A DNA stretch of 64,000 nucleotides from an uncultured Lentisphaerota bacterium (GCA_903889245.1 CAISWQ010000100.1:37260-101259); one strand, 5' to 3'. Positions 5,671-25,367 are shown, counted from the stretch's first letter. Notes: generated by a model not told the origin, from the sequence alone. Numbers and translations are program-made.

Positions 5671-6336
5671 ATGCGTATTGTCAAATGCGGCTGGTGGTTG
5701 ATCATCGGTTTGCTGTTGGCGGGCGTGCTGCCCGGCCTGATTTTCCACAAGCTGGAATGGATGCGGGCGGCGTGGACGTGCTACCTCACGGGCGGCGTGC
5801 TGTGCGCGTTCATGCTCTACTTTTTCCGCGACCCGGACCGCACGGCCCACGGCGATGAATCACTGCTGGTCGCGGGCGCCGACGGCCTGATCCGCAACGT
5901 GGAGACGCTGCGGGAGGACAAATACCTGCAGGCCGATGTCGTGCGTGTCAGCATCTTCCTTTCGCCGTTCGATGTGCACGTCAACCGCATCCCGATGGGC
6001 GGGACGGTGACGAAGCTGGGCTACACGGCCGGCGCGCACCTGGGCACCTACCTGAACTCGGCTTCGGAGCATAACGAGCACAGCTCCATCGTGGTCGAGG
6101 GCAGCGGCACGAAGGTCCTGGTCAAGCAGATCGTCGGCCCGATCGTGCGGCGCGTGGTGTACTGGCTGGTGGTGAACCAGAAGCTGGTGCGCGGCGAGCG
6201 GATCGGGATGATGAAATTCGGCTCGCGGCTGGACATGTACTTTGTGAAGGCCGACGTGGATATCCTCGTGAAGAAGGGCGACCGCGTGCGCGCCGGCGAG
6301 ACGGTCGTCGCGCAGCTCCGCAAAGGCAAGGCATGA
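5671..6336 (+). CDS. psd: Phosphatidylserine decarboxylase family proenzyme (Psd, short/PSD-B type)
   Basis: FLSPFDVHVNRIPMGG and KFGSRLD motifs typical of PS decarboxylase. Overlaps pssA by 4 bp. Confidence 0.82.
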   Translation: MRIVKCGWWLIIGLLLAGVLPGLIFHKLEWMRAAWTCYLTGGVLCAFMLYFFRDPDRTAHGDESLLVAGADGLIRNVETLREDKYLQADVVRVSIFLSPFDVHVNRIPMGGTVTKLGYTAGAHLGTYLNSASEHNEHSSIVVEGSGTKVLVKQIVGPIVRRVVYWLVVNQKLVRGERIGMMKFGSRLDMYFVKADVDILVKKGDRVRAGETVVAQLRKGKA

Positions 6337-7103
6337 AAGTCAACACGCGCGCCATCCTGCCTGTGGTGCTGACGCTCGGCGCGATGTGCGCGGGCTTCGC
6401 CAGCATCGTGATGAGCGCACACAGCGAATACGTCTGGGCCGCGCGCCTGATCATTCTTTCCATGATCCTCGACGGGCTCGATGGCGCGCTGGCGCGCCTG
6501 CTCAAGGGCACGAGCAGCTTTGGCGCGGAGCTGGACACATTTGTGGACATGACCAGCTTCGGCATCGCGCCTGCGCTGCTCGCCTATGAAGCGTGCTGGC
6601 ACCATTTTGGCCCGTGGGGCAAGGTGCTGGCGGGTTTCATGGTGCTCTCCGGCGCCAGCCGCCTCTCGCGCTTCCGCATCATTGATCCGCTCCGTGGCCA
6701 GGGCGGTTTTCTGGGTTTGCCCATCACGTGCGCCGGCGGGTTCGTGACGTGCATTGTTTTTGTTGCGTATTCTGGCGCGGTGCAGGAGTGGGGCTGGACC
6801 TGGTTCAACCTGACGCAGGGCCCGCTGGCCTGGACGGTCTGGACCGCCGTGACGTTGATGTTGGTGTTGCAGGTCTCGCACGTCCGCTACACCAAGGCCT
6901 CGAAACACCCGGTGGTCTTCCTCGCCGGCATCGTGCTGGTGGTCGCGCTCTTCCTCAACATCCACCTGCTGGCCTCCGTCGCGGCGCTCGGGGGCTGCGC
7001 GGCCGGTCTGTACTTTGCGTTTTTGAGTCCCTTCATCCATCCGCCCGGCGCCAAGCCGGCGCCGACGCCCCAGCCGGAGGAAAAACCGGCGGCGGCGTCC
7101 TGA
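6333..7103 (+). CDS. pssA: CDP-diacylglycerol--serine O-phosphatidyltransferase (CDP-alcohol phosphatidyltransferase family)
   Basis: DG-x2-AR-x8-G-x3-D-x3-D signature ([26 protein letters not shown]); multi-TM. Confidence 0.85.
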
Positions 7104-7125
7104 ACTCTTCCCACGAGGTGTTGGC

Positions 7126-8802
7126 ATGGCCGGCGAATATGTCTTCCAGCTTGAACGTCTGACCAAACAGTACCACCGCGTCAACGTGCTCAACGAGATC
7201 ACGCTCGCGTTTTTCTACGGCGCGAAGATCGGCGTCATCGGCGGCAACGGCTCCGGTAAATCCACCCTGCTGCGCATCCTGGCCGGAACGGATACGGACT
7301 TCATGGGCACCGCGGCCATCGCGCGCAACGTCCGCATCGGCCACCTGCCGCAGGAGCCGCAGCTCGATCCCGCAAAGACCGTCGCCGGCAACGTCGAGGA
7401 GGGCGTCGCCAGCGCCAGGGCGCTGCTGACGCGCTACGACGAAATCTGCGACCTGCTCGGCACGACGCCCGCGGGCGCGGAGGCCGATAAGCTCAACGCC
7501 GAGCTCGGCCGCATCCAGGACAAGATTGACGCGCAGGATTTGTGGAACCTTGACCACAACGTCGAGATGGCCATGGAAGCGCTGCGCCTGCCGCCGCCCG
7601 AGGCCGACGTCACCAAGCTCTCCGGTGGCGAACGCCGCCGCGTCGCGCTCTGCCGCCTGCTGATTTCCAACCCCGATGTGTTGCTGCTCGACGAGCCCAC
7701 CAACCACCTTGATGCCGAATCGGTGGCGTGGCTGGAAACCTATCTCAAAAAATTCACCGGCACGCTCGTTGTCGTCACGCACGACCGCTACTTCCTCAAC
7801 AACGTCACCGGATGGATCCTTGAGCTCGAGGGTGGCGCGGCGTTTCCCTACCAAGGGAACTACGAAAGCTGGCTCGAGCAGAAGCAGGCGCTCCTCGCCG
7901 CGCAGAGCAAGCAGGCTGCGCAGCGCAATAAACTGCTCAACCAGGAACTGCAGTGGGTCCGCCTCAATCCCTCCGGCCGCCAGGCCAAGAGCAAGGCGCG
8001 CCTCAAACGCTACGAGGAGCTGGCCGCGCAGCAGGTGGATACGCGCGAGGACAACCTCGAAATCCAGATTCCGCCCGGCCCGCGGCTCGGTGACCTCGTC
8101 GTCCGCGCCCAAAACCTGAGCAAGGAATTCGGCGAGCGCGTTCTGTTCGAGAACGTCAACTTTGACCTGCCGCGCGGCGGCATCGTTGGCGTCATCGGCG
8201 GCAACGGCGCGGGCAAAACCACGCTGCTGAAGATGTTCATGGGCCGGGAGACCGCGACCGCCGGTACGCTCTCGGTCGGTCCGACCGTCGCGCTCTCCTA
8301 TGTGGACCAGAGCCGCGACACGCTCAACCCGAACAACTCCGTCTACGAGGAGATCACCGGCGGCCGCGAGAACCTCGACCTCGGCGGCAAGCAGATGAAC
8401 GGCCGCGCCTACTGCGGCCGCTTCAACTTCCGCGGCACCGACCAGCAGAAAAAAGTCGGCCAGCTCTCCGGCGGCGAACGCAACCGCGTCCACCTCGCCA
8501 AGCTCCTGCGCGGCGGCGGTAACCTGCTTCTGCTCGACGAGCCGACCAACGACCTCGACGTGACCACATTGCGCGCGCTGGAGGAAGGCCTGACGAACTT
8601 CGGCGGCTGCGCCGTGGTCGTCAGCCATGATCGCTGGTTCCTCGACCGCGTCGCCACGCACATCCTCGCCTTCGAGGGCGACTCCAAGGTGACCTGGTTC
8701 GAGGGCAACTACGAGGCCTACCACGAACAGCGCCGCCGCCTGCTCGGCGATGCCGCCGACCAGCCGCACCGCGTCAGCTTCCGCCCGATCCACCACAGTT
8801 AA
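7126..8802 (+). CDS. ettA: ABC-F family ATPase EttA (energy-dependent translational throttle)
   Basis: Two ABC ATPase cassettes (GGNGSGKST / [18 protein letters not shown] / LSGGERNRV), ~558 aa, EttA-like N-terminus. Confidence 0.9.
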
Positions 8803-8821
8803 GGTGGTGGGATAGGGGCCG

Positions 8822-8873
8822 GGTTTTCCAACCCTTGGAAAAAAGGAGCGCGGTTTTTCCAAGGCTTGGAAAC
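8822..8873. repeat. Palindromic repeat cluster 3 (2 copies)
   Basis: ggttttccaacccttggaaaaaa ... tttttccaaggcttggaaacgg. Confidence 0.8.
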
Positions 8874-8919
8874 GGCGGAGTGCGGCGTTACCCTGCGGCA
8901 GGTTTTCGCAGGGGTCTGC

Positions 8920-13348: not shown

Positions 13349-13903
13349 ATGCCGTTGCACGTCCAGCCGCCGGTCAACGACGAGGATTTTGCGTTGATGG
13401 CCCGCCTCCGCGCCGGCGACACCGCCGCCTTCGCCGCGCTCATCCGCCGCCACCAGGTGGCGCTGGTGAACTTTTTCCGGCGTATGGGCGCTAGTAACGA
13501 GGCGGAAGACGTGGCGCAGGAGACGTTCCTGCGCGTGTGGCGCTACCGCCAGCGCTACCGGCCGACGGCGAAGTTCACGACCTTCCTCTTCACGCTGGCG
13601 CGGCACGCGTGGGCCGACCACCTGCGCCGCGCGCACAAGCAGGAACGGGTCGCCGAGCGGGTCGGGGCCGAGGCCGCGCCGCACGACGCGACCGCGCAGG
13701 ATGCGGCGCGGCGGCGGCTCGATGCGCAGGTCGCGCTGGCGGCGCTGCCGGAAAAATTGCGGCTGGTGGTGGTGATGAGCCTCTACCAAGGTCTGAAATA
13801 TGAAGAGATCGCCACAGCGCTGGGCATCCCGGTGGGCACGGTCAAGTCGCGGATGTTCCTGGCGATGGCGCGACTGAAGGAAGTGTTCCAAGCGGCGGAG
13901 TGA
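13349..13903 (+). CDS. ECF (sigma-70 family, group IV) RNA polymerase sigma factor
   Basis: Region 2 (FLRVWRYRQRY) and region 4 (YEEIATALGIPVGTVKSRM); start at MPLHVQ within track ORF 13259..13903. Confidence 0.85.
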   Translation: MPLHVQPPVNDEDFALMARLRAGDTAAFAALIRRHQVALVNFFRRMGASNEAEDVAQETFLRVWRYRQRYRPTAKFTTFLFTLARHAWADHLRRAHKQERVAERVGAEAAPHDATAQDAARRRLDAQVALAALPEKLRLVVVMSLYQGLKYEEIATALGIPVGTVKSRMFLAMARLKEVFQAAE

Positions 13904-13904
13904 T

Positions 13905-14095
13905 ATGAAGCCAAGCGGGAGTGTTGGAGTGAAGAAGAACTGGAATGATGGAGTGGTGGAGTACTGGAGTGATGGAGTGATGGAACGGATGACCCTGTCC
14001 TTGGGCAGGTTGGAATCCACGCATATCATCCGGATAGGTTTCTGGCGCTCTATCGAAAACTCCTGTACTCCATCACTCCCTTCCGTCTTTTCGTC
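13905..14095. repeat. GGAGTG-rich degenerate tandem repeats forming a long imperfect inverted repeat in the sigma/anti-sigma spacer
   Basis: ggagtgttggagtg...ggagtggtggagtactggagtgatggagtgatgg, then ~80 nt later the complement cctgtactccatcactccc; lower GC than surroundings. Confidence 0.6.
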
Positions 14096-14112
14096 TCTTC
14101 CGGGATTGCGTT

Positions 14113-15450
14113 ATGAAAACCGACACTGATGCGTCTGCGGTCTGTGCCTGGTCACAGGAGTTGCCCGCGCTTTTGCTCGGCGAACTCGACGCCGCGCGCG
14201 CGGCCGAGGTCGAGCGGCACAGCGCCGGCTGCGCCCGCTGTACGGCGCAGCGCGAAGACTTGGGCTGTTTGCTGTTCCGCCTGCGCGCGCCGCTGCCCGC
14301 GCAACCGGTCCGCGACCTCGCGCCGGAAATCCTCGCGCGCCTGCCGGATGCGGAAGCAGGCTGGCATCGCCGCACATTCTGGTTCCGCGCCGCTGCGCTG
14401 CTGTTGGCTACGGCCGGCCTCGGCGCCGCGCTGCTGTGGCATCAGCTACGCCAATCCGCCTTTGATCTGGCCGCCACAGTTCCGCCTGCTGTCATCAACC
14501 ATGAACCGTCCACCCTTGCTTCTGTTCCCATGGATCGCACGGCCGCCGTCGCCAACGCGCTCGCGTGGCTGGAGCGGACGCAGGAAGCCGACGGTCACTG
14601 GGACACCGCGCGCTGGGGTGCGCAGCGGATGTATTCGGTCGGCCTGACCTCGCTCGCCCTGCTCGCGCTTTCCGCCGAGGGCCCCGCTGTTTCGCCGCCA
14701 CAACGCTCGGCGATTGCGCGCGGTGTGGACTGGCTCCTTGCGCAGCAGGACGCGCGCGGGCAGCTTGGCCCGGATGGTTCCGCCGCGATGTATAACCACA
14801 GCCTGGCGACGCTCGCGTTGCTCGAAGGCGGCGCGCTGACGACCAGCGCCGCGCACCGCGCCGCCTGCCGGCGCGCCCTCGCGCACATCACCGGCGCGCA
14901 GCGCGCGTCCGGCGGCTGGGGCTATTCGCGCGGTGCGGCCGACAACGTCAACACCTCGATCACCGTCTGGCAGTTGCAGGCGCTGCTGCGCGCCGAGGCG
15001 CTCGGCTTCGCGGAGGTGCGTCCGTACCTCACACGCGGCCTCGCTTGGCTCGGCGACCGCATCGGCGCCGAGGGCCGCGTAGGCTACCGCCGCGCCGATG
15101 ATTTCCCAAACGGCGCCGAGACGCTGACCGCCGCGGGCGCGCTGTGCTTGCTGCGCTCAACGGACGGCGCACATGATCCGCGCGTCGCGCGGATGCTGGC
15201 GTGGGTGCGCGGCACGGCGGAGCAGCCGGCGACGGCGGATTACTATCGCTGCTACTTCGTCAGCGCCGCGCTCGCCTCCGCCGCGGGCGCGGCCGACCCC
15301 GCGCTCGAAAAAATGCGCGGCGCGGTGCTCGCGCGGCAGATGCGCGACGGCGCCGAGGCCGGGAGCTGGACGCCCGGCGACCGCTGGGGCCGCGCCGGCG
15401 GCCGCATCTACGCCACCGCCATGGCCGTCCTCGCCCTTCAGTCCGGCTGA
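14113..15450 (+). CDS. Anti-sigma factor (zinc-finger type) with periplasmic prenyltransferase/squalene-cyclase-like repeat domain
   Basis: N-terminal H-x3-C-x2-C (HSAGCARC), one TM segment, C-terminal Q-x2-DG-W/GGWG repeats (QEADGHW, QRASGGWGY, DGAEAGSW); located immediately after the ECF sigma gene. Confidence 0.75.
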   Translation: MKTDTDASAVCAWSQELPALLLGELDAARAAEVERHSAGCARCTAQREDLGCLLFRLRAPLPAQPVRDLAPEILARLPDAEAGWHRRTFWFRAAALLLATAGLGAALLWHQLRQSAFDLAATVPPAVINHEPSTLASVPMDRTAAVANALAWLERTQEADGHWDTARWGAQRMYSVGLTSLALLALSAEGPAVSPPQRSAIARGVDWLLAQQDARGQLGPDGSAAMYNHSLATLALLEGGALTTSAAHRAACRRALAHITGAQRASGGWGYSRGAADNVNTSITVWQLQALLRAEALGFAEVRPYLTRGLAWLGDRIGAEGRVGYRRADDFPNGAETLTAAGALCLLRSTDGAHDPRVARMLAWVRGTAEQPATADYYRCYFVSAALASAAGAADPALEKMRGAVLARQMRDGAEAGSWTPGDRWGRAGGRIYATAMAVLALQSG

Positions 15451-15674: not shown

Positions 15675-15895
15675 CCTCCATGCTCGGCGCAGTATCAAGC
15701 CCCGAAAACCGCCATGATACCTAGAACTACTAGGTATCGTCCTCTTTCTGAAACAGCGAGAAGCTGGTGAGCTTCAATGGTGCGGACCTCCATGCTTGGC
15801 GCAATATCAAGCCCCGAGAACCGCCACGATACCTAGAACTACTAGGTATCATCCTCATTTTTGAGCAGCGAGAGGCTGGTGAGCTTTAACGGTGC
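15675..15895. repeat. Tandem direct repeat (2 x ~112 bp), each unit containing a perfect 9-bp-arm inverted repeat GATACCTAG-aacta-CTAGGTATC and a 14-codon mini-ORF
   Basis: Units starting cctccatgctcggcgcagtatcaagccccgaaaaccgccatgatacctagaactactaggtatc... and cctccatgcttggcgcaatatcaagccccgagaaccgccacgatacctagaactactaggtatc...; lower GC; intergenic between the anti-sigma gene and the membrane-protein gene. Confidence 0.8.
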
Positions 15896-16679: not shown

Positions 16680-16795
16680 CGTTCCAAGCCTTGGGAAAAT
16701 GCAAGAGGTTTTTTCCGAGCCTTGGAAAAAACGGCGTGATTTTTTCCAAGGCCCGGAAAAACCGCTGGGTCCCTTTTCCAATGTTAGGAAAAGTC
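16680..16795. repeat. Palindromic repeat cluster 4 (4 copies, ~31-bp phasing)
   Basis: gttccaagccttgggaaaa / ttttttccgagccttggaaaaaa / ttttttccaaggcccggaaaaa / ttttccaatgttaggaaaag, between convergent genes. Confidence 0.8.
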
Positions 16796-17582
16796 AGTCG
16801 GGATTCCACGTGGCGGCGGCGAGCAGGATGCCGCCGATGTAGCGGCCGTGGTTGCGGCCGGTGGCGTCAGCGGCGACGCTGCCGCTGGTCTCGTCGAGCT
16901 TCCAATAACCGACGAGGTCGGGCTCGGCGAGAATCAGCGCGTCGTAGGCGGTGCTGCCGCGCGCCTGATAGTGGTCGCGGATGGCGTTGGCGGAGAGCGC
17001 CGCGCCGTAGATGGCGACGCGGCTGATCGCGCCGTTGAAGAAACTTTGCAGGTCGCGCGTGGCGAGGCGCACCGGCGCGCTGCCGTGCTGTGGCACGATG
17101 CCGTAGCCGGAGAGCGGGTCGCTGTCGCGCTGGTCGCCGTCACGGAAGATCGAGGTGCTGATGGCATCAATACGCCCGACGACATGGAGCCAGAGGCCCT
17201 CGGCGAGCGGGTCCTGGAAGTAACTGCCTGCGCCCTGGCCGCCGGACGGGTTGAAGGCGTAGAAACTGATGCGGTTGGCGCGGCCCTCGCTGTTGCCCGC
17301 CTGGTACATGCGCGCGACCCACTCGTGCCGCTGCGGCTCGCCCTTGCCGAGCCAGTGGACGTAGCCGCTGCCCTCGACGTTCGGCATCGCGAGCGAGTCG
17401 GGCCGCAGCCACGCCTCGACCGTCAGGCCGCCGTTGGTCGGCTGTGAATAGTCAGGGCTATCGGGGATTTCGACATAGCCGTCGTAGCCATCGAAAACAG
17501 GAGCTGCAAAGTTGGCTGCGGCCACCGGCACGGGATCGTCCGCGGGCGGATCGGAGAACAGGAAGTCCAGGTCAGGATTCAT
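16794..17582 (-). CDS. LamG / concanavalin-A-like lectin-glucanase domain protein
   Basis: Jelly-roll LamG-like sequence (GLTVEAWLRP...FDGAISRVAIYGAALSANAI); start at MNPDLDF within track ORF 16794..17612; no signal peptide seen; directly downstream of the rSAM fusion gene on the same strand. Confidence 0.65.
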   Translation of the reverse strand: MNPDLDFLFSDPPADDPVPVAAANFAAPVFDGYDGYVEIPDSPDYSQPTNGGLTVEAWLRPDSLAMPNVEGSGYVHWLGKGEPQRHEWVARMYQAGNSEGRANRISFYAFNPSGGQGAGSYFQDPLAEGLWLHVVGRIDAISTSIFRDGDQRDSDPLSGYGIVPQHGSAPVRLATRDLQSFFNGAISRVAIYGAALSANAIRDHYQARGSTAYDALILAEPDLVGYWKLDETSGSVAADATGRNHGRYIGGILLAAATWNPD

Positions 17583-17648
17583 GGTGGTTTGATAGCAGAA
17601 ACCCGGAGCCAAGGCAATCGGGCCGAGCCATTGTACGTAGAGACAACA

Positions 17649-19949
17649 TCAGAGAACTTTAATGACAATGTCACTGACAGAAGGGCGAGGAGAGAAATCC
17701 ACATCGCGCTTTATGTACACTTCCAAGGTGAGGCAACGCAACATGGTGTTGATGAAAATGTCTGTGGGTTTTACTGCGGGGGTACTCACGCCAGGACTGG
17801 CGGGACAATTCCAGTGACCGTCGGGGTCTTGTGCTTTGATCAACGCAACATAGACTTGTTGACAAAACGTTTCGTCGGCACGGGACGTGAACATGGCTAA
17901 AACAAGAAGATAAGACTGAAACAGCGCGTCACGCATACATTTCTGACTTAAATCAAGAACCGAGTTGGTGGCGGCTGTCGCGGTGTTCGCTTGGATCAGG
18001 CGATGCGCCATATCTAGTTTATTACCGTCTTGCTTGTCCAGGTAGACCATGCCGAGAATGCCTGCCCCTTGAACCTCTGCGCTAATCTTCTGGGTGTCTC
18101 GCAGAGCTGGTGAGTCACGGAATGCGCCCTCAATGAAAGTCTTTTCCATAAAAGCTTCTGCCTTGATCAGGGCTGCATCTGCATCAGGCGCACCCCACAA
18201 ACTCGTTCTTAGCGCCATGATCTGCCAGACAGAGAAAGTGAGGTTCCAATCCTCGTCCTTGGCATAATTCAAGCCCCATCCGCCGTCCGGTCGCTGTCCC
18301 TGGGCGATGTATTGTGCCGCCTTTTGAGACCGATCCAAAAGTTCAGGGATACGTGTCATGGCATAGGTTTTTGCCAGGGCATAGGTGGCGATGGCGTGAG
18401 TATAAGGATTGGCCGGACGGGGGGAGGTAGATTCAAGCGTTCCGTCACCAAGCTGCTTCCGGGAAAGAAAATAAATGGCCTTCTCAATTGTCGGTCCATA
18501 GGTGGCATCTGACATGGTGGCGGAATTCCCCAGATAACAGAGCAGTGCCAAGCTGGTACAAAGCACCGGGTCATCTTTGGACCACGACCCATCGGCATTT
18601 TGTTGTTCTTTCAACCACTGCAAGCACCGCACAATCGCTTGGTTTGCCTGAGTGAACTGCGGCCTTTCCCGCTTCCCTCCGCTGCCAGCTTTACTTCCAT
18701 ATCCCTTGCTGACGCCTTTGAGGATAAGCGGGGCTCTTATGGAACCTGTTGGGGAAATGATCGAGTCGAGTGGGATAGTTGTCGTTGGCTGGGTTGTAAA
18801 CTCGGTACCCTGTGCGCCAAGAGACCCCACTAAAAAACTGATTCCAGCAGCCTTTTTGAAAACGGGCGGTACACTCCAGACTTGCTTGAAACACTGCGTT
18901 CCCTGTTGGCGATGGAGCCAGCATCCACTACCGCATTCGAGCCACTGCTCACACGCGGCACATTTCGGCATGCGACGGGGGAATCGTTGTCGCTCAAACC
19001 GCGAGTTCCAAATGGTGGCGAACGCTTCCCGCGTCAGATTTCCTTCGCAATGTCTTGGGTCGAGGGTGGAGCACGGCATGACCGAGCCGTCCGGCCAGAC
19101 GGCGCACAGCGTACGGCCAGCGCCACAGAAGAAGACCTCGTCGCGGACCAACGGCTCCCACTGGCCGACGCGGCCCATTTCGTCGCACAAGGACACCGGA
19201 AACTCCGCGCGTTTGAGTGCGACGAACTTCAGCAGCTTGCGCAGTTGGGTGGTGCGGAGAAACAAATCCTTACGTTGGCGGGCACGGCCTTCGGGGATCA
19301 GCAGGTGGATGCCCCAGCGGTGAGCACTGCTCTGGCGGACAAGAGCAAAGGTTTCATCAAGGTACGGATAGTTGACGGTGGAGACCGTCGTGCCCGCGCA
19401 CACTACTGTCGTTGGCAATCCGGCAAAGAAACGCAGGCTGTTCAAGGCGGAATCATAGGCTGCGGGATGACCGCGAAAAGCGTTATGCACTTTGCGGGGG
19501 CCATCCAAGCTGACGGCGACAAATACCGGCGGATAGGCGCGAATGGCAATTTGTTGTGCAGGGGTTGGACAGGCCGCCGTATTTAGAGACCAAGCTAAGC
19601 GATGAGCTTTGAGATGGTCAAGGCATTGGGCGAGTTGCTCGTGTTGCAGTGGTTCCCCACCTGTTAGTAGCATCTCCGGATCACCCAAGGCGGTTGCTTC
19701 GCGGCATAACTTTTCGAACAGTTCCAAAGGCATGTCTTTCCGGTCGCGATTGTCGGCAGGTACTGCCAGACAGTGAGCGCAGGATAAATTACAGCGCAGG
19801 GTGAGATAGCATTGGATGACCGCCGGGGCTTGGGTGTAGCCAAATTTATTGAAGAAGGCATCGCCCCACGACGCTGTGAGTGGGACATGCATTCCGATTT
19901 TAGTATGTGCTCCCATGCCTGAACACCTTTTCCACCAAATTTCCTTCAA
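17649..19949 (-). CDS. Radical SAM / SPASM-domain enzyme fused to a C-terminal prenyltransferase/terpene-cyclase-like (alpha/alpha-toroid) repeat domain
   Basis: N-terminal half: CxxxCxxC (CNLSCAHC) and an auxiliary Cys-rich SPASM-like region (CGAGRTLC...MPCS...CEGN...CAACEQWLECGSGC). C-terminal half: QNADGSW, QRPDGGWG, QDPDGHW repeats. The gene is clearly lower in GC than the flanking DNA. Confidence 0.8.
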   Translation of the reverse strand: MKEIWWKRCSGMGAHTKIGMHVPLTASWGDAFFNKFGYTQAPAVIQCYLTLRCNLSCAHCLAVPADNRDRKDMPLELFEKLCREATALGDPEMLLTGGEPLQHEQLAQCLDHLKAHRLAWSLNTAACPTPAQQIAIRAYPPVFVAVSLDGPRKVHNAFRGHPAAYDSALNSLRFFAGLPTTVVCAGTTVSTVNYPYLDETFALVRQSSAHRWGIHLLIPEGRARQRKDLFLRTTQLRKLLKFVALKRAEFPVSLCDEMGRVGQWEPLVRDEVFFCGAGRTLCAVWPDGSVMPCSTLDPRHCEGNLTREAFATIWNSRFERQRFPRRMPKCAACEQWLECGSGCWLHRQQGTQCFKQVWSVPPVFKKAAGISFLVGSLGAQGTEFTTQPTTTIPLDSIISPTGSIRAPLILKGVSKGYGSKAGSGGKRERPQFTQANQAIVRCLQWLKEQQNADGSWSKDDPVLCTSLALLCYLGNSATMSDATYGPTIEKAIYFLSRKQLGDGTLESTSPRPANPYTHAIATYALAKTYAMTRIPELLDRSQKAAQYIAQGQRPDGGWGLNYAKDEDWNLTFSVWQIMALRTSLWGAPDADAALIKAEAFMEKTFIEGAFRDSPALRDTQKISAEVQGAGILGMVYLDKQDGNKLDMAHRLIQANTATAATNSVLDLSQKCMRDALFQSYLLVLAMFTSRADETFCQQVYVALIKAQDPDGHWNCPASPGVSTPAVKPTDIFINTMLRCLTLEVYIKRDVDFSPRPSVSDIVIKVL

Positions 19950-20025
19950 CCGAGCCGCATCATAAATAGGGGCCGTGGGGTGTCAATGAGGAATTGGTCT
20001 TGTTTTTCTCGGACGGGCGGGAAGA

Positions 20026-23814: not shown

Positions 23815-24120
23815 ATGATTGCGGAAGTCAGTCGCGTGGGGAAACGGGGTACGGTGGTGCTGCCGGCCAGCCTGCGGCGGCGGTTCGGCATGGAGGAAGG
23901 CGCCCTGCTGATGGCCGAGAGCCATGAGGATGGCATCCTGCTGCGGCCCGCGGCCGTGGTGCCGATGGAAACCTACTCGCCCGCCCGCAAGGCGGAATTC
24001 CTGCTGAACAATGCTGTCACCCCGGCGGACTATCAGCAGGCCGTGCAGGATGTTCGGGCGCTGGGCCTCGATCCGGCGCAGATCAAACATCGCAAACCCA
24101 AGGGCGCGGCGCGCGCATGA
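23815..24120 (+). CDS. vapB: AbrB/MazE/SpoVT-family antitoxin (VapB-like)
   Basis: N-terminal swapped-hairpin beta-barrel signature (VGKRGTVVLPASLRRRFGMEEGALL); 4-bp overlap with the downstream PIN gene. Confidence 0.8.
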   Translation: MIAEVSRVGKRGTVVLPASLRRRFGMEEGALLMAESHEDGILLRPAAVVPMETYSPARKAEFLLNNAVTPADYQQAVQDVRALGLDPAQIKHRKPKGAARA

Positions 24121-24512
24121 AGCGTGTCTTTCTGGATGCCAATGTCCTGTTCTCCGCCGCGTGGCGCGAGGAAAACGGCCTGCTGAAACTCTGGCGACTG
24201 GCGGGCGTGGCCTTGGTGACCTCCGCCTATGCTGCCCGCGAAGCCGAAATCAATCTGCCGGACGACGCCCAGCGCCAACGCCTGCGTCATCTTCTCCAAC
24301 GTGTTGACGTTCTGCCACCCGCCACAGCCCTGCCTCCCCTGCCGTCCGGCGTGCACTTGCCGGCCAAGGACGCACCGATCTTGCAGGCGGCCATCGCCGC
24401 CGATGCCACTGTGCTGCTGACCGGCGATGTGACACACTTCGGTCCCTATTTTGGCAAGCGACTTGGCGGGGTGCAGGTGCTGCCGCCCGCCGCGTTCCTA
24501 GCCGCCGGTTGA
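24117..24512 (+). CDS. vapC: PIN-domain ribonuclease toxin (VapC-like)
   Basis: VFLDANVL... start with conserved acidic residues (D6, E, D near the C-terminus LLTGDV); ATGA overlap with vapB. Confidence 0.8.
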   Translation: MKRVFLDANVLFSAAWREENGLLKLWRLAGVALVTSAYAAREAEINLPDDAQRQRLRHLLQRVDVLPPATALPPLPSGVHLPAKDAPILQAAIAADATVLLTGDVTHFGPYFGKRLGGVQVLPPAAFLAAG

Positions 24513-24540
24513 ATTGGAAGTCCTGTTGGTGATGATGCAG

Positions 24541-24603
24541 CCCTGTAGCGGCGGCCTGTGGCCGCCGACGGCGACCGCAGGTCGCCGCTACAGCGGAACA
24601 AAC
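24541..24603. repeat. 60-bp imperfect-palindrome element, copy 2
   Basis: cctgtagcggcggcctgtggccgccgacggcgaccgcaggtcgccgctacagcggaacaa, followed by the tgtgggcggggtttccaaccccgc ... gcggggttgcaaaccccgcccaca long hairpin (24626-24700). Confidence 0.8.
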
Positions 24604-24838
24604 TACATACAACCTGACTGCTTTGTGGGCGGGGTTTCCAACCCCGCGAACCCCAACCAACGCCAGCCAGCGCGGGGTTGCAAACCCCGCCCACAAAACA
24701 CCTGCGGACCAAACGCGCCGCCTTGACACCCGCCCCCCACTTCCTACACTTTCGCGGCCTTGGCCGCTGGCGAGCGTGATGCCAAAAATATGCTACTCCG
24801 CAGCAGGGTATGATGGATACCGTGTCACGGAAAAGTGA

Positions 24839-25246
24839 ATGGCGGGCATTAATGACATGACAAACGACACAGTCATTATTCACGGAAGTCCGTGGAAGGC
24901 GATTGATATACAAGATGCTATTGCCGTTTGTCGTGGTCGCACTTGGACATTTCACAAGTGGGAAGCATCACCAGCACTGATTCAGAAGTCCGGCACGACT
25001 TCCAAATTCATAGGCCAGAAATACGATCCGACGAAATACAGACTCGATCCTAAAGGTTGGACGCACGATCATTGTCAAATTTGCTGGTGGACGATAAGTG
25101 ACGCACGAGACGAGGAAAGCAATTCTGGATTTACAGATGGCCGCGATTGGATTTGTACCGAATGTTTCAATAAATTCATGATGGAGAAAAGGGGAGCCCA
25201 ACCACCCGCCGGAGATTATTCGCTCGAAGACGTGCGAGAACCTTAA
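24839..25246 (+). CDS. Hypothetical zinc-ribbon protein (two CxxC pairs), low-GC ORF
   Basis: HDHCQICWW...WICTEC; markedly AT-richer than neighbours; flanked by copies 2 and 3 of the 60-bp element. Confidence 0.5.
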   Translation: MAGINDMTNDTVIIHGSPWKAIDIQDAIAVCRGRTWTFHKWEASPALIQKSGTTSKFIGQKYDPTKYRLDPKGWTHDHCQICWWTISDARDEESNSGFTDGRDWICTECFNKFMMEKRGAQPPAGDYSLEDVREP

Positions 25247-25300
25247 CCGTACGTTCGTTTGAATAGGAGTTTTTCTCAGGCTTGGAAAACGTGACACAGT

Positions 25301-25357
25301 TCCTGTAGCGGCGGCCTGTGGCCGCCGATGGCGACCGCAGGTCGCCGCTGCAACAAA
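25301..25357. repeat. 60-bp imperfect-palindrome element, copy 3 (3' end degenerate)
   Basis: cctgtagcggcggcctgtggccgccgatggcgaccgcaggtcgccgctgcaac; a single degenerate TTCCAAG-type palindrome lies just upstream (25271-25291). Confidence 0.75.
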
Positions 25358-25367
25358 AGGAAACAGC

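Follow-up and report, generated by a model that had tools for sequence, protein, structure and literature searches.

A horizontally acquired single gene joins a radical-SAM/SPASM enzyme half to a squalene-cyclase-like toroid through a signal-peptide-like segment

We analyzed a 64,000-nucleotide stretch of DNA from an uncultured Lentisphaerota bacterium (GCA_903889245.1 CAISWQ010000100.1:37260-101259; hereafter the window) with a focus on one minus-strand gene for a 755-residue protein. The original prediction, made from the sequence alone, had described a low-GC island encoding a radical-S-adenosylmethionine (SAM)/SPASM enzyme fused to a terpene-cyclase-like repeat domain and followed by a LamG-like protein; this observation is confirmed, and its interpretation is partly supported. 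The gene was inserted recently and is self-sufficient, and the low-GC island consists of it alone. Comparison with its homologs suggests that it is a rare domain-swapped member of a large, uncharacterized family in which a radical-SAM (rSAM) half is followed by a putatively exported domain. We hold it slightly more probable than its negation that this one horizontally acquired, self-contained gene encodes a single-pass membrane protein, with a cytoplasmic rSAM/SPASM half and an exported, non-catalytic toroid. We regard as demonstrated how the domains are arranged, which cysteines are present, the fold, the insertion, and that no neighbor is conserved.

Results

Domain anatomy and the radical-SAM/SPASM half

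The longest open reading frame (ORF), 17649-19949 on the minus strand, gives 766 residues when read from an upstream TTG at 19949. We favor the ATG at 19916 as the start, since the gene calls of the database twin P0001, which is 100% identical and stems from identical metagenome contigs, give 755 residues and since homologs share the N-terminus MG.H... Pfam residue positions below follow the 766-residue numbering, and positions of cysteines, model and linker the 755-residue numbering. Four Pfam domains exceed their gathering thresholds, namely Radical_SAM (PF04055; residues 49-176, 32.6 bits, cut-off 29.5), SPASM (PF13186; residues 275-334, 34.9 bits, cut-off 21.5), SQHop_cyclase_N (41.1 bits, cut-off 26.2) and SQHop_cyclase_C (27.5 bits, cut-off 26.1; repeat families PF13249 and PF13243). 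The AlphaFold2 model, computed from an alignment of 123 sequences, has a mean predicted local distance difference test score (pLDDT) of 84 and divides into a confident rSAM/SPASM half (residues 20-350), a helix (351-369) that coincides with the sole hydrophobic segment of the protein, a disordered stretch (373-417) and a 12-helix toroid (419-735). Pfam, AlphaFold2 and Foldseek thus bear out the fusion. No Pfam or NCBIfam model spans the whole protein and the open-access literature gave nothing on it, in line with the earlier remark that the fusion was not known as a described family.

Radical-SAM enzymes cleave SAM reductively at a cluster held by a CxxxCxxC motif, and the resulting 5'-deoxyadenosyl radical abstracts hydrogen from the substrate; the auxiliary clusters of SPASM domains serve in substrate binding or electron relay. 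The cluster ligands C42, C46 and C49 are invariant in both 26 and 100 aligned family members, and the core adopts the partial TIM barrel expected of the superfamily. Seven SPASM cysteines (C264, C282, C319, C322, C328, C332 and C342) are invariant in the 26 members, and an eighth, C271, is conserved in at least 90%. Their spacing, C264-x12-G-x4-C282 and then C319-x2-C322-x5-C328-x3-C332 ... C342, fits the pattern Cx9-15Gx4C ... Cx2Cx5Cx3C ... C. All three sets of Fe-S cysteines are present, with no sign of a missing second or third cluster, and the SPASM set would be enough for two auxiliary [4Fe-4S] clusters, that is, for a predicted total of three.

In a Foldseek comparison with the PDB, the N-terminal half matched CteB (5WHY), SuiB (5V1Q), SkfB (6EFN), BlsE, the anaerobic sulfatase maturase anSME (AtsB/ChuR; 4K36-4K39) and PqqE (6C8V), the closest folds being peptide or protein maturases (SuiB, SkfB, anSME, PqqE and CteB). 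The best named NCBIfam model is TIGR04133 ('rSAM_w_lipo'), whose 350-position profile is covered almost entirely (156.6 bits, E 8e-46); as this score lies far under the cut-off of 425 bits, the protein is not a TIGR04133 member, and its nearest stand-alone rSAM relatives also stay below that cut-off (~190 bits). All other NCBIfam matches listed likewise fall far short of their cut-offs, including the second-best, MftC (TIGR03962; 94.0 bits, cut-off 265), the heme b synthase AhbD (TIGR04545; 83.2 bits, cut-off 500) and NirJ (69.6 bits, cut-off 515). The sulfatase maturase model TIGR03942 is outside the 25 best NCBIfam matches, the similarity to anSME being at the level of the fold only. A recognition element (RRE)/PqqD-like domain, as known from ribosomally synthesized and post-translationally modified peptide (RiPP) systems, was found by neither Pfam nor NCBIfam, and only ~30 residues precede the rSAM core. 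By these profile and fold comparisons, the N-terminal half appears to be of the SPASM-maturase type, yet outside all curated families.

A signal-peptide-like junction

Past the last SPASM cysteine, essentially all of the ~160 family members carry the strongly conserved motif C-F-K-x-V-W-H-V-P-x-A-L-K-T-A-A-G-I-A-I-C-L-G-G-L-A, which reads CFKQVWSVPPVFKKAAGISFLVGSLGAQG in the 755-residue protein and is followed by a low-complexity stretch rich in A, P, Q and T. The hydrophobic segment starts ~10 residues after the last cluster cysteine. Across 164 family members its uncharged run has a median of 15 residues (interquartile range 14-16), and the 15 residues before the run hold on average 2.43 K+R, compared with 1.14 after it. 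In 8 of the 164 sequences, mostly from Myxococcota and including the close homolog P0002 (LSGC), a canonical lipobox ends the segment at a fixed distance (+25 from the last SPASM cysteine; background 1.4%). In many others the segment is seen by eye to end in AxA-like motifs (VYA-Q, ASA-A, AEA-Q), with LGA-QG in the 755-residue protein. Given the uncharged run, the K/R asymmetry, the lipoboxes and the AxA-like ends, the junction resembles an internal signal peptide or signal anchor, placed midway along the polypeptide chain.

The lipobox (L-A/S-A/G-C) was recorded at loci L047, L050, L051, L058, L066, L068 and L079 and in P0002 and P0012, mostly 25 residues (range 25-31) past the last SPASM cysteine, a position that corresponds to a lipoprotein signal ~370 residues into the protein.

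No start-capable codon is conserved at the junction across the family, so that an internal start is excluded and the product is one polypeptide. We had considered two overlapping genes, the K-E-V codons being able to give a Shine-Dalgarno-like AAGGAGGTG, and rejected this arrangement: the Val codons vary among members (GTC, GTG, GTT, ATT, CTG etc.), and those of the rSAM gene itself (GTC, GTA and GTT) are not start-capable. Also discarded was the motif Y-A-S-K/Q-x-x-G, which the clades share past the linker; in the major clade it is part of a folded helix, in the 755-residue protein it belongs to the disordered linker, and we consider it coincidental.

One rSAM unit with different, putatively exported domains

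Members of the family occur in Planctomycetota, Fermentibacterota (Aegiribacteria), Lentisphaerota, Verrucomicrobiota and Myxococcota, mostly in anaerobic, uncultured bacteria, and amount to ~100 representative clusters from at least five phyla. Among 1.84 billion representative proteins there are ~8 rSAM-toroid fusions and ~80-90 representatives of the wider fused family. The toroid clade is small, with a full toroid in the 755-residue protein and P0002-P0005 and a degenerate one in P0006-P0014. Most members have, in place of the toroid, a ~380-residue domain past the junction that matches no Pfam or NCBIfam model. We read the toroid as having replaced an ancestral exported domain through recombination within the linker.

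The exported domain of this major clade (P0016, P0044, P0096 etc.; ~393-768 of P0044) is modeled with a pLDDT of ~90 as a helical bundle plus beta sheet and ends in a conserved aromatic tail (KDIDFWMF, ADFWLF). When sought as a stand-alone protein (a 'Rosetta stone' test), it was met in fused proteins and contig-end fragments only, an absence that is weakly supported because the word-seeded search gave just 8 hits. Beyond the fused family, the next relatives are unclassified stand-alone rSAM/SPASM proteins of 350-380 residues with ~30% identity. At one distant rSAM locus (L082), two tandem stand-alone rSAM/SPASM genes follow the gene of a lipobox protein.

The toroid as a putative extracytoplasmic binding module

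The C-terminal repeats model as an alpha/alpha toroid, mostly with pLDDT above 85, as had been anticipated, and their Foldseek matches in the PDB include the small squalene-hopene-cyclase-like toroids 8PAJ and 8PAK, drimenyl-diphosphate synthase and 7XR7; Prenyltrans and TED_complement match weakly in Pfam. Squalene-hopene cyclase, other class II terpene cyclases and LanC share the fold and the QxxDGxW repeats, but squalene-hopene cyclase is a two-domain enzyme of ~630 residues with a DxDD motif and LanC has a Cys/Cys/His zinc site, whereas the 755-residue protein has a single toroid of ~320 residues. Its C-terminal half contains no DxDD motif (D.D[DE]) and no conserved Cys/Cys/His zinc triad, gives no match to LANC_like (PF05147) down to E = 1, and reaches 39.8 bits with TIGR01787 (cut-off 322.7). 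Since both the DxDD motif and the zinc triad are missing, we infer a non-catalytic binding module, and the earlier proposal of a LanC- or terpene-cyclase-like catalytic toroid is not borne out; moreover, the toroid most likely lies across the membrane from the rSAM half, because the signal-peptide-like segment and the 45-residue disordered linker separate the two.

A search with the toroid alone returned as best relatives Verrucomicrobiota/Kiritimatiellota proteins of 480-550 residues (25-34% identity over more than 90% of the domain), annotated as 'terpene cyclase/mutase family' or 'prenyltransferase/squalene oxidase repeat'. They are built of a short basic N-terminal tail, one transmembrane helix of 20-22 residues, a low-complexity linker and the toroid, and the same layout recurs in the zinc-binding anti-sigma (ZAS) factor at 14113-15450 of the window. 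These membrane-tethered proteins of the Planctomycetes-Verrucomicrobia-Chlamydiae (PVC) group and the ZAS factors therefore resemble the 755-residue protein in the order cytoplasmic part, hydrophobic segment, linker and homologous toroid; they differ in having, on the cytoplasmic side, a short tail or a sigma-binding zf-HC2 domain where the 755-residue protein has an enzyme. The toroid of the latter retains the framework repeats, and several of the conserved polar residues of the PVC toroids are replaced in it. As the close relatives sit on an N-in membrane anchor or an anti-sigma factor, the toroid probably lies outside the cytoplasm.

In this organism, the squalene-cyclase-like toroid turns up repeatedly as a sensor or binding module. 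A functional link between the fusion and the anti-sigma factor, proposed earlier on the basis of the common fold, finds no support: the toroids share no more than a remote homology (28% identity over 155 residues), and the rSAM gene arrived recently. The anti-sigma gene forms part of a plus-strand pair at 13349-15450, in which an extracytoplasmic function (ECF) sigma factor of 184 residues precedes the ZAS protein with zf-HC2, one transmembrane helix (residues 88-109) and a toroid inferred to be periplasmic. Elsewhere, stand-alone toroid genes lie directly after bamA-skp-lpxD (L096 5001-6494), as a tandem pair near lptD (L094 5001-8110) and beside ykuD (L087 6001-7566), contexts that hint at an outer-membrane or cell-envelope role for the toroid family. 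A conserved C-terminal tail of the form D-V-x-V-x-hydrophobic, which the 755-residue protein has in common with P0121 and P0129, was dropped, as a regular expression retrieved it in 1 of 120 toroid proteins.

These observations bear on an alternative, in essence that of the original prediction with its maturase and LanC- or terpene-cyclase-like domain, in which the protein is a soluble, cytoplasmic two-domain enzyme whose hydrophobic helix is an interdomain element and whose toroid would bind a substrate, either isoprenoid or peptide, and offer it to the rSAM site. The hydrophobic stretch is indeed short, with a Kyte-Doolittle value under the usual threshold, and the fold is common to squalene-hopene cyclases, prenyltransferases and LanC, with SQHop_cyclase_N and SQHop_cyclase_C above their cut-offs. 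Yet the anchored location of all close toroid relatives, the conserved signal-peptide-like features and lipoboxes, the disordered 45 residues between the domains, the toroid's lack of both catalytic signatures, and the unrelated domain that the major clade carries in its place all speak against it, and of the explanations weighed here we give it the least credence.

A single-gene insertion

The rSAM gene deviates strongly in composition (GC 0.547; GC at third codon positions, GC3, 0.585) from its six neighbors, LamG included (GC 0.665-0.724, GC3 0.84-0.93); the earlier reading of a low GC content holds, the value being ~55% instead of the ~50% then given. Homologs in other genomes agree in composition with their own flanks; a low GC content is therefore no inherent trait of the family. 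More directly, proteins at least 90% identical to LamG are encoded on two contigs (L090 and L091), where an AXE1-like esterase gene and the LamG gene are divergent and directly adjacent and the rSAM gene is absent. In a blastn alignment, two segments of L090 match the window at 88% identity: 5919-8048 pairs with window positions 22115-19989, and 8067-8895 with 17603-16775. The rSAM gene is horizontally acquired, as was suggested from its composition, and the empty site in relatives shows this directly.

The junction sequences indicate that the insert (Table 1) enters a 110-nucleotide (nt) divergent intergenic region after '...CAAGACCAATTCCT'. It holds the gene, 72 nt upstream with a promoter-like site and ~26 nt downstream, and no other ORF; target-site duplication, flanking direct or inverted repeats and a mobility gene were looked for at the insert and not found. 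The locus is thus a clean natural experiment, in which a single gene with its own promoter-like site has been placed into an intergenic region, and it follows that the gene transfers, and presumably functions, alone.

Table 1. Coordinates of the rSAM-toroid gene, its parts, the insert and the adjacent LamG gene in the window
Feature	Position	Strand	Basis or remark
rSAM/SPASM - hydrophobic segment - linker - toroid gene	17649..19916	(-)	755 aa, stop codon included
Radical-SAM core	19422..19805	(-)	Pfam PF04055 match; model pLDDT >90
CNLSCAHC, CxxxCxxC ligands of the radical-SAM [4Fe-4S] cluster (C42, C46, C49)	19770..19793	(-)	invariant in family alignment
SPASM region, seven invariant and one nearly invariant Cys	18891..19127	(-)	PF13186, 34.9 bits; family alignment
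Signal-peptide-like/signal-anchor segment PVFKKAAGISFLVGSLGAQ, helix 351-369, 13-aa uncharged run preceded by KK	18810..18866	(-)	model and family comparison
Disordered low-complexity linker, residues 373-417, pLDDT <50, pre-toroid motif GYGSKAGSGGKRER at its end	18666..18800	(-)	model and alignment
Alpha/alpha toroid, ~12 helices, residues 419-735, repeats QNADGSW, QRPDGGWG, QDPDGHW	17712..18662	(-)	Pfam, model, Foldseek
Inserted segment, ~2.37 kb, GC 0.546, this gene only	17623..19988	.	blastn of L090 against the window and junction sequences; right-hand boundary approximate (17604-17623)
Promoter-like TTGACA-16 nt-TATGAT, 11/12 matches, inside the insert just upstream of the gene	19959..19986	(-)	consensus match only; ~1 such site expected by chance in the region
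Resident LamG (Laminin_G_3) gene, 262 aa, outside the inserted unit	16794..17582	(-)	E 2.4e-16; GC3 0.867; empty-site comparison

The LamG neighbor and the question of a partner

The original prediction had extended the island over 16794-19949, treating LamG as part of it and as a possible partner or substrate. The deviant composition of the rSAM gene stands, but LamG belongs to the resident DNA and did not arrive together with the rSAM gene, because it is adjacent to AXE1 in relatives without an rSAM gene at this site and because its composition is host-like. The Laminin_G_3 match and the absence of an N-terminal hydrophobic segment, as judged by eye, agree with the earlier description, whereas its candidacy as a partner is rejected on the grounds of composition, empty site and lack of co-occurrence at homologous loci. 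Since a scan of the 66-nt gap between the two genes found no terminator-like site, LamG may be co-transcribed by read-through from the rSAM gene. On the other side of LamG, towards a convergent gene for a 209-residue protein, positions 16682-16761 contain nested inverted repeats rich in T- and A-runs (38-nt arms 76% complementary, 22-nt arms 95%) that resemble a bidirectional terminator.

The neighborhoods of the homologs P0002, P0005 and P0007 lack LamG and have nothing in common with the window or with one another. For a broader survey, a scan of GTDB representative genomes provided 74 family loci (L007-L080), all from metagenome-assembled genomes of Lentisphaerae, Sedimentisphaerales, Phycisphaerales, other Planctomycetota, Aegiribacteria/Fermentibacteria, Victivallales, Verrucomicrobiota and Myxococcota. 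All-against-all clustering of the ORFs of at least 90 residues within 8-kb flanks, ORFs below 90 residues having had no systematic survey, revealed recurrence for nothing but the rSAM gene (59 full-length copies) and its shadow ORFs; no neighbor, LamG included, is shared, and the next-largest clusters comprise 9-11 loci and reflect lineage-specific synteny. A conserved partner is thus absent from these loci, an outcome that the original prediction had itself named as speaking against its reading.

A RiPP-type system is not supported either. Besides the lack of an RRE, the short flanks within the insert leave no room for a precursor gene. The twin 14-residue ORFs that had been offered as the nearest candidates do exist (MLGAVSSPENRHDT at 15681-15725 and MLGAISSPENRHDT at 15793-15837), but they lie outside the insert, on the plus strand and within a tandem duplication. 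This duplication (15675-15895, plus strand, between the anti-sigma gene and the 209-residue gene) consists of two ~112-nt copies that are 88% identical, each with a palindrome, GATACCTAGAACTACTAGGTATC, and one 14-residue ORF whose TAG stop lies inside the palindrome. Three of the four differences between the ORFs are synonymous, and there is no Rfam match; the duplication could be a leader peptide/attenuator, a small repeat element or a protein-binding site. A scan of the entire window against Rfam gave zero matches.

The same survey informs a further explanation, that the protein is a membrane enzyme which modifies a lipid or cofactor, with the rSAM half acting on a small molecule within the membrane, for instance a polyprenyl lipid, hopanoid, quinone or tetrapyrrole, and the toroid receiving or binding this molecule on the periplasmic side. 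The proximity of the catalytic domain to the membrane segment (within ~10 residues), the resemblance of the toroid to isoprenoid-binding folds, the tetrapyrrole enzymes AhbD and NirJ among the sub-threshold matches and the JGI annotation of one member as 'AdoMet-dependent heme synthase' would fit such a role. Isoprenoid, heme and quinone genes, on the other hand, do not recur near family members among the surveyed ORFs, and the major clade uses no toroid; we consider this explanation quite improbable.

Two further features of the surroundings were noted. The 88%-identity synteny with L090 stops right after LamG (window 16775 / L090 8895), which marks a second rearrangement breakpoint beside the insertion. 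Beyond it, L090 has genes for a 612-residue protein, a methyltransferase, a 717-residue squalene-hopene cyclase, a prenyltransferase-like protein and a polyprenyl synthase, and the window has the 209-residue gene and the ECF sigma/anti-sigma pair instead. At ~24513-25367 of the window, between a MazE/PIN toxin-antitoxin pair (23815-24512, plus strand) and a GH32/43-like gene, the identical contigs have no gene call over ~850 nt, a stretch in which GC falls to 0.49-0.53.

Discussion

With this in mind, we propose the following mechanism. The N-terminal 350 residues would form a cytoplasmic radical-SAM/SPASM enzyme with three [4Fe-4S] clusters, which would cleave SAM reductively and use the 5'-deoxyadenosyl radical to take a hydrogen atom from its substrate, its two auxiliary clusters serving substrate binding or electron transfer. 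The uncharged segment of 13-16 residues, with K/R on its N-side, would act as an internal signal sequence or signal anchor (N-in, C-out) and place the ~45-residue disordered linker and the 320-residue toroid in the periplasm. There, the toroid would be a non-catalytic binding module like those found in PVC bacteria on anti-sigma factors and on small membrane anchors; in the wider family, the same unit of rSAM half and hydrophobic segment would carry a different exported domain. The topology by itself, an enzyme held at the membrane on the cytoplasmic side and an exported toroid, appears probable from the sequence features when a variant with subsequent cleavage is counted in: the hydrophobic segment is conserved, K and R are enriched on its N-side and the toroid homologs are membrane-tethered, set against a run of only 13-16 residues.

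Several points weigh against this model. The run in the 755-residue protein comprises 13 residues, and its best 19-residue Kyte-Doolittle window reaches 1.35 (usual threshold 1.6); such a length is typical of the h-region of a signal peptide and marginal for a stable transmembrane helix, and AlphaFold is unable to decide the topology. The K/R and lipobox counts come from related sequences, which overstates their independence, and the lipoboxes fall mostly within one Myxococcota subclade. Two different exported domains occur on a conserved (~50% identical) rSAM half, which argues against the exported domain as the substrate. The envelope context of the stand-alone toroids stems from three loci only. 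Finally, polar residues conserved in the stand-alone toroids are replaced (E506T, E516K, D558N, W681D) and the sister subclade P0006-P0014 has a degenerate toroid, so that the ligand of the toroid may differ or be lost.

The length of the run is also what recommends a polyprotein, or 'enzyme-as-leader', reading. Here, the junction is an internal Sec or lipoprotein signal peptide, and signal peptidase I or II frees a periplasmic or lipid-anchored toroid while the rSAM half stays in the cytoplasm; the latter may first modify the part to be exported, in cis or on a sister molecule. An uncharged run of 13-16 residues has the length of an h-region and not of a transmembrane helix, the lipoboxes keep a fixed position in 8 of 164 members (P0002 included), AxA-like motifs such as LGA-QG follow the segment, and the closest named profile is 'rSAM_w_lipo'. 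A self-contained pair of enzyme and client would, in addition, explain the lack of any partner gene, and the best structural neighbors are protein and peptide maturases. We know, however, of no precedent for a folded Fe-S domain of 350 residues as the n-region of a signal peptide. Leu at position -3 makes a poor signal peptidase I site in the 755-residue protein, the exported domains of the clades are unrelated, so that a common target motif would need to lie in the short conserved junction, and a stand-alone version of the major-clade domain, which would prove a two-gene ancestor, was not found by the word-seeded search. We thus judge this reading unlikely, if worth keeping in view.

Returning to the single-pass membrane protein, our best guess for the substrate, by analogy with anSME, is a polypeptide or envelope precursor that the enzyme would act on from the cytoplasmic side prior to its export, and one candidate is the exported portion of the protein itself; the nearest folds, being peptide or protein maturases, and the lack of a partner gene lead us to favor this. 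The most far-reaching reading would be a hitherto unrecognized system of self-contained maturation, in which an rSAM/SPASM maturase serves as N-terminal 'leader', modifies its own downstream client in the cytoplasm, be it at the junction, the linker or the exported domain, has it exported by the internal signal or lipobox and is separated from it by signal peptidase. We regard this as rather unlikely; if true, every enzyme molecule would be coupled stoichiometrically to a single envelope protein that is radical-modified and exported. Less far-reaching would be a first receptor-like radical-SAM enzyme, whose cytoplasmic activity is controlled by a periplasmic, ligand-binding toroid.

Among known systems, the sulfatase maturase anSME is soluble, has ~370 residues without hydrophobic segment or exported domain and shows low sequence similarity to the 755-residue protein, for which no sulfatase linkage was seen. 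The SPASM maturases of RiPP pathways, to which the best fold matches and the second-best profile belong, carry or recruit an RRE/PqqD domain and adjoin a precursor gene, whereas the 755-residue protein has no RRE, no precursor and no conserved neighbor. To our knowledge, characterized radical-SAM/SPASM enzymes are soluble cytoplasmic proteins whose substrates were found via neighboring genes. For TIGR04133, a family that we take to be defined by an adjacent lipoprotein gene, the name suggests a pairing with lipoproteins and is echoed here by the signal-peptide and lipobox features fused downstream, although TIGR04133 proteins are stand-alone, ~350 residues long and uncharacterized. In a limited search of the open-access literature, we came across no account of an rSAM enzyme that combines an internal signal sequence with an exported domain, and nothing relevant on TIGR04133, rSAM enzymes with a periplasmic or transmembrane part, the squalene oxidase repeat or rSAM-lipoprotein fusions.

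In summary, our analysis reveals a family of enzymes that have no conserved neighbor and are always joined, via a signal-peptide-like segment, to a large domain of exported type. If the proposed topology is right, this family would tie cytoplasmic radical chemistry to the cell envelope in a way that is undescribed so far. It would then also provide a first functional handle on the abundant, unexplained membrane-anchored toroids of PVC bacteria and on the lipoprotein association that the name of TIGR04133 implies.

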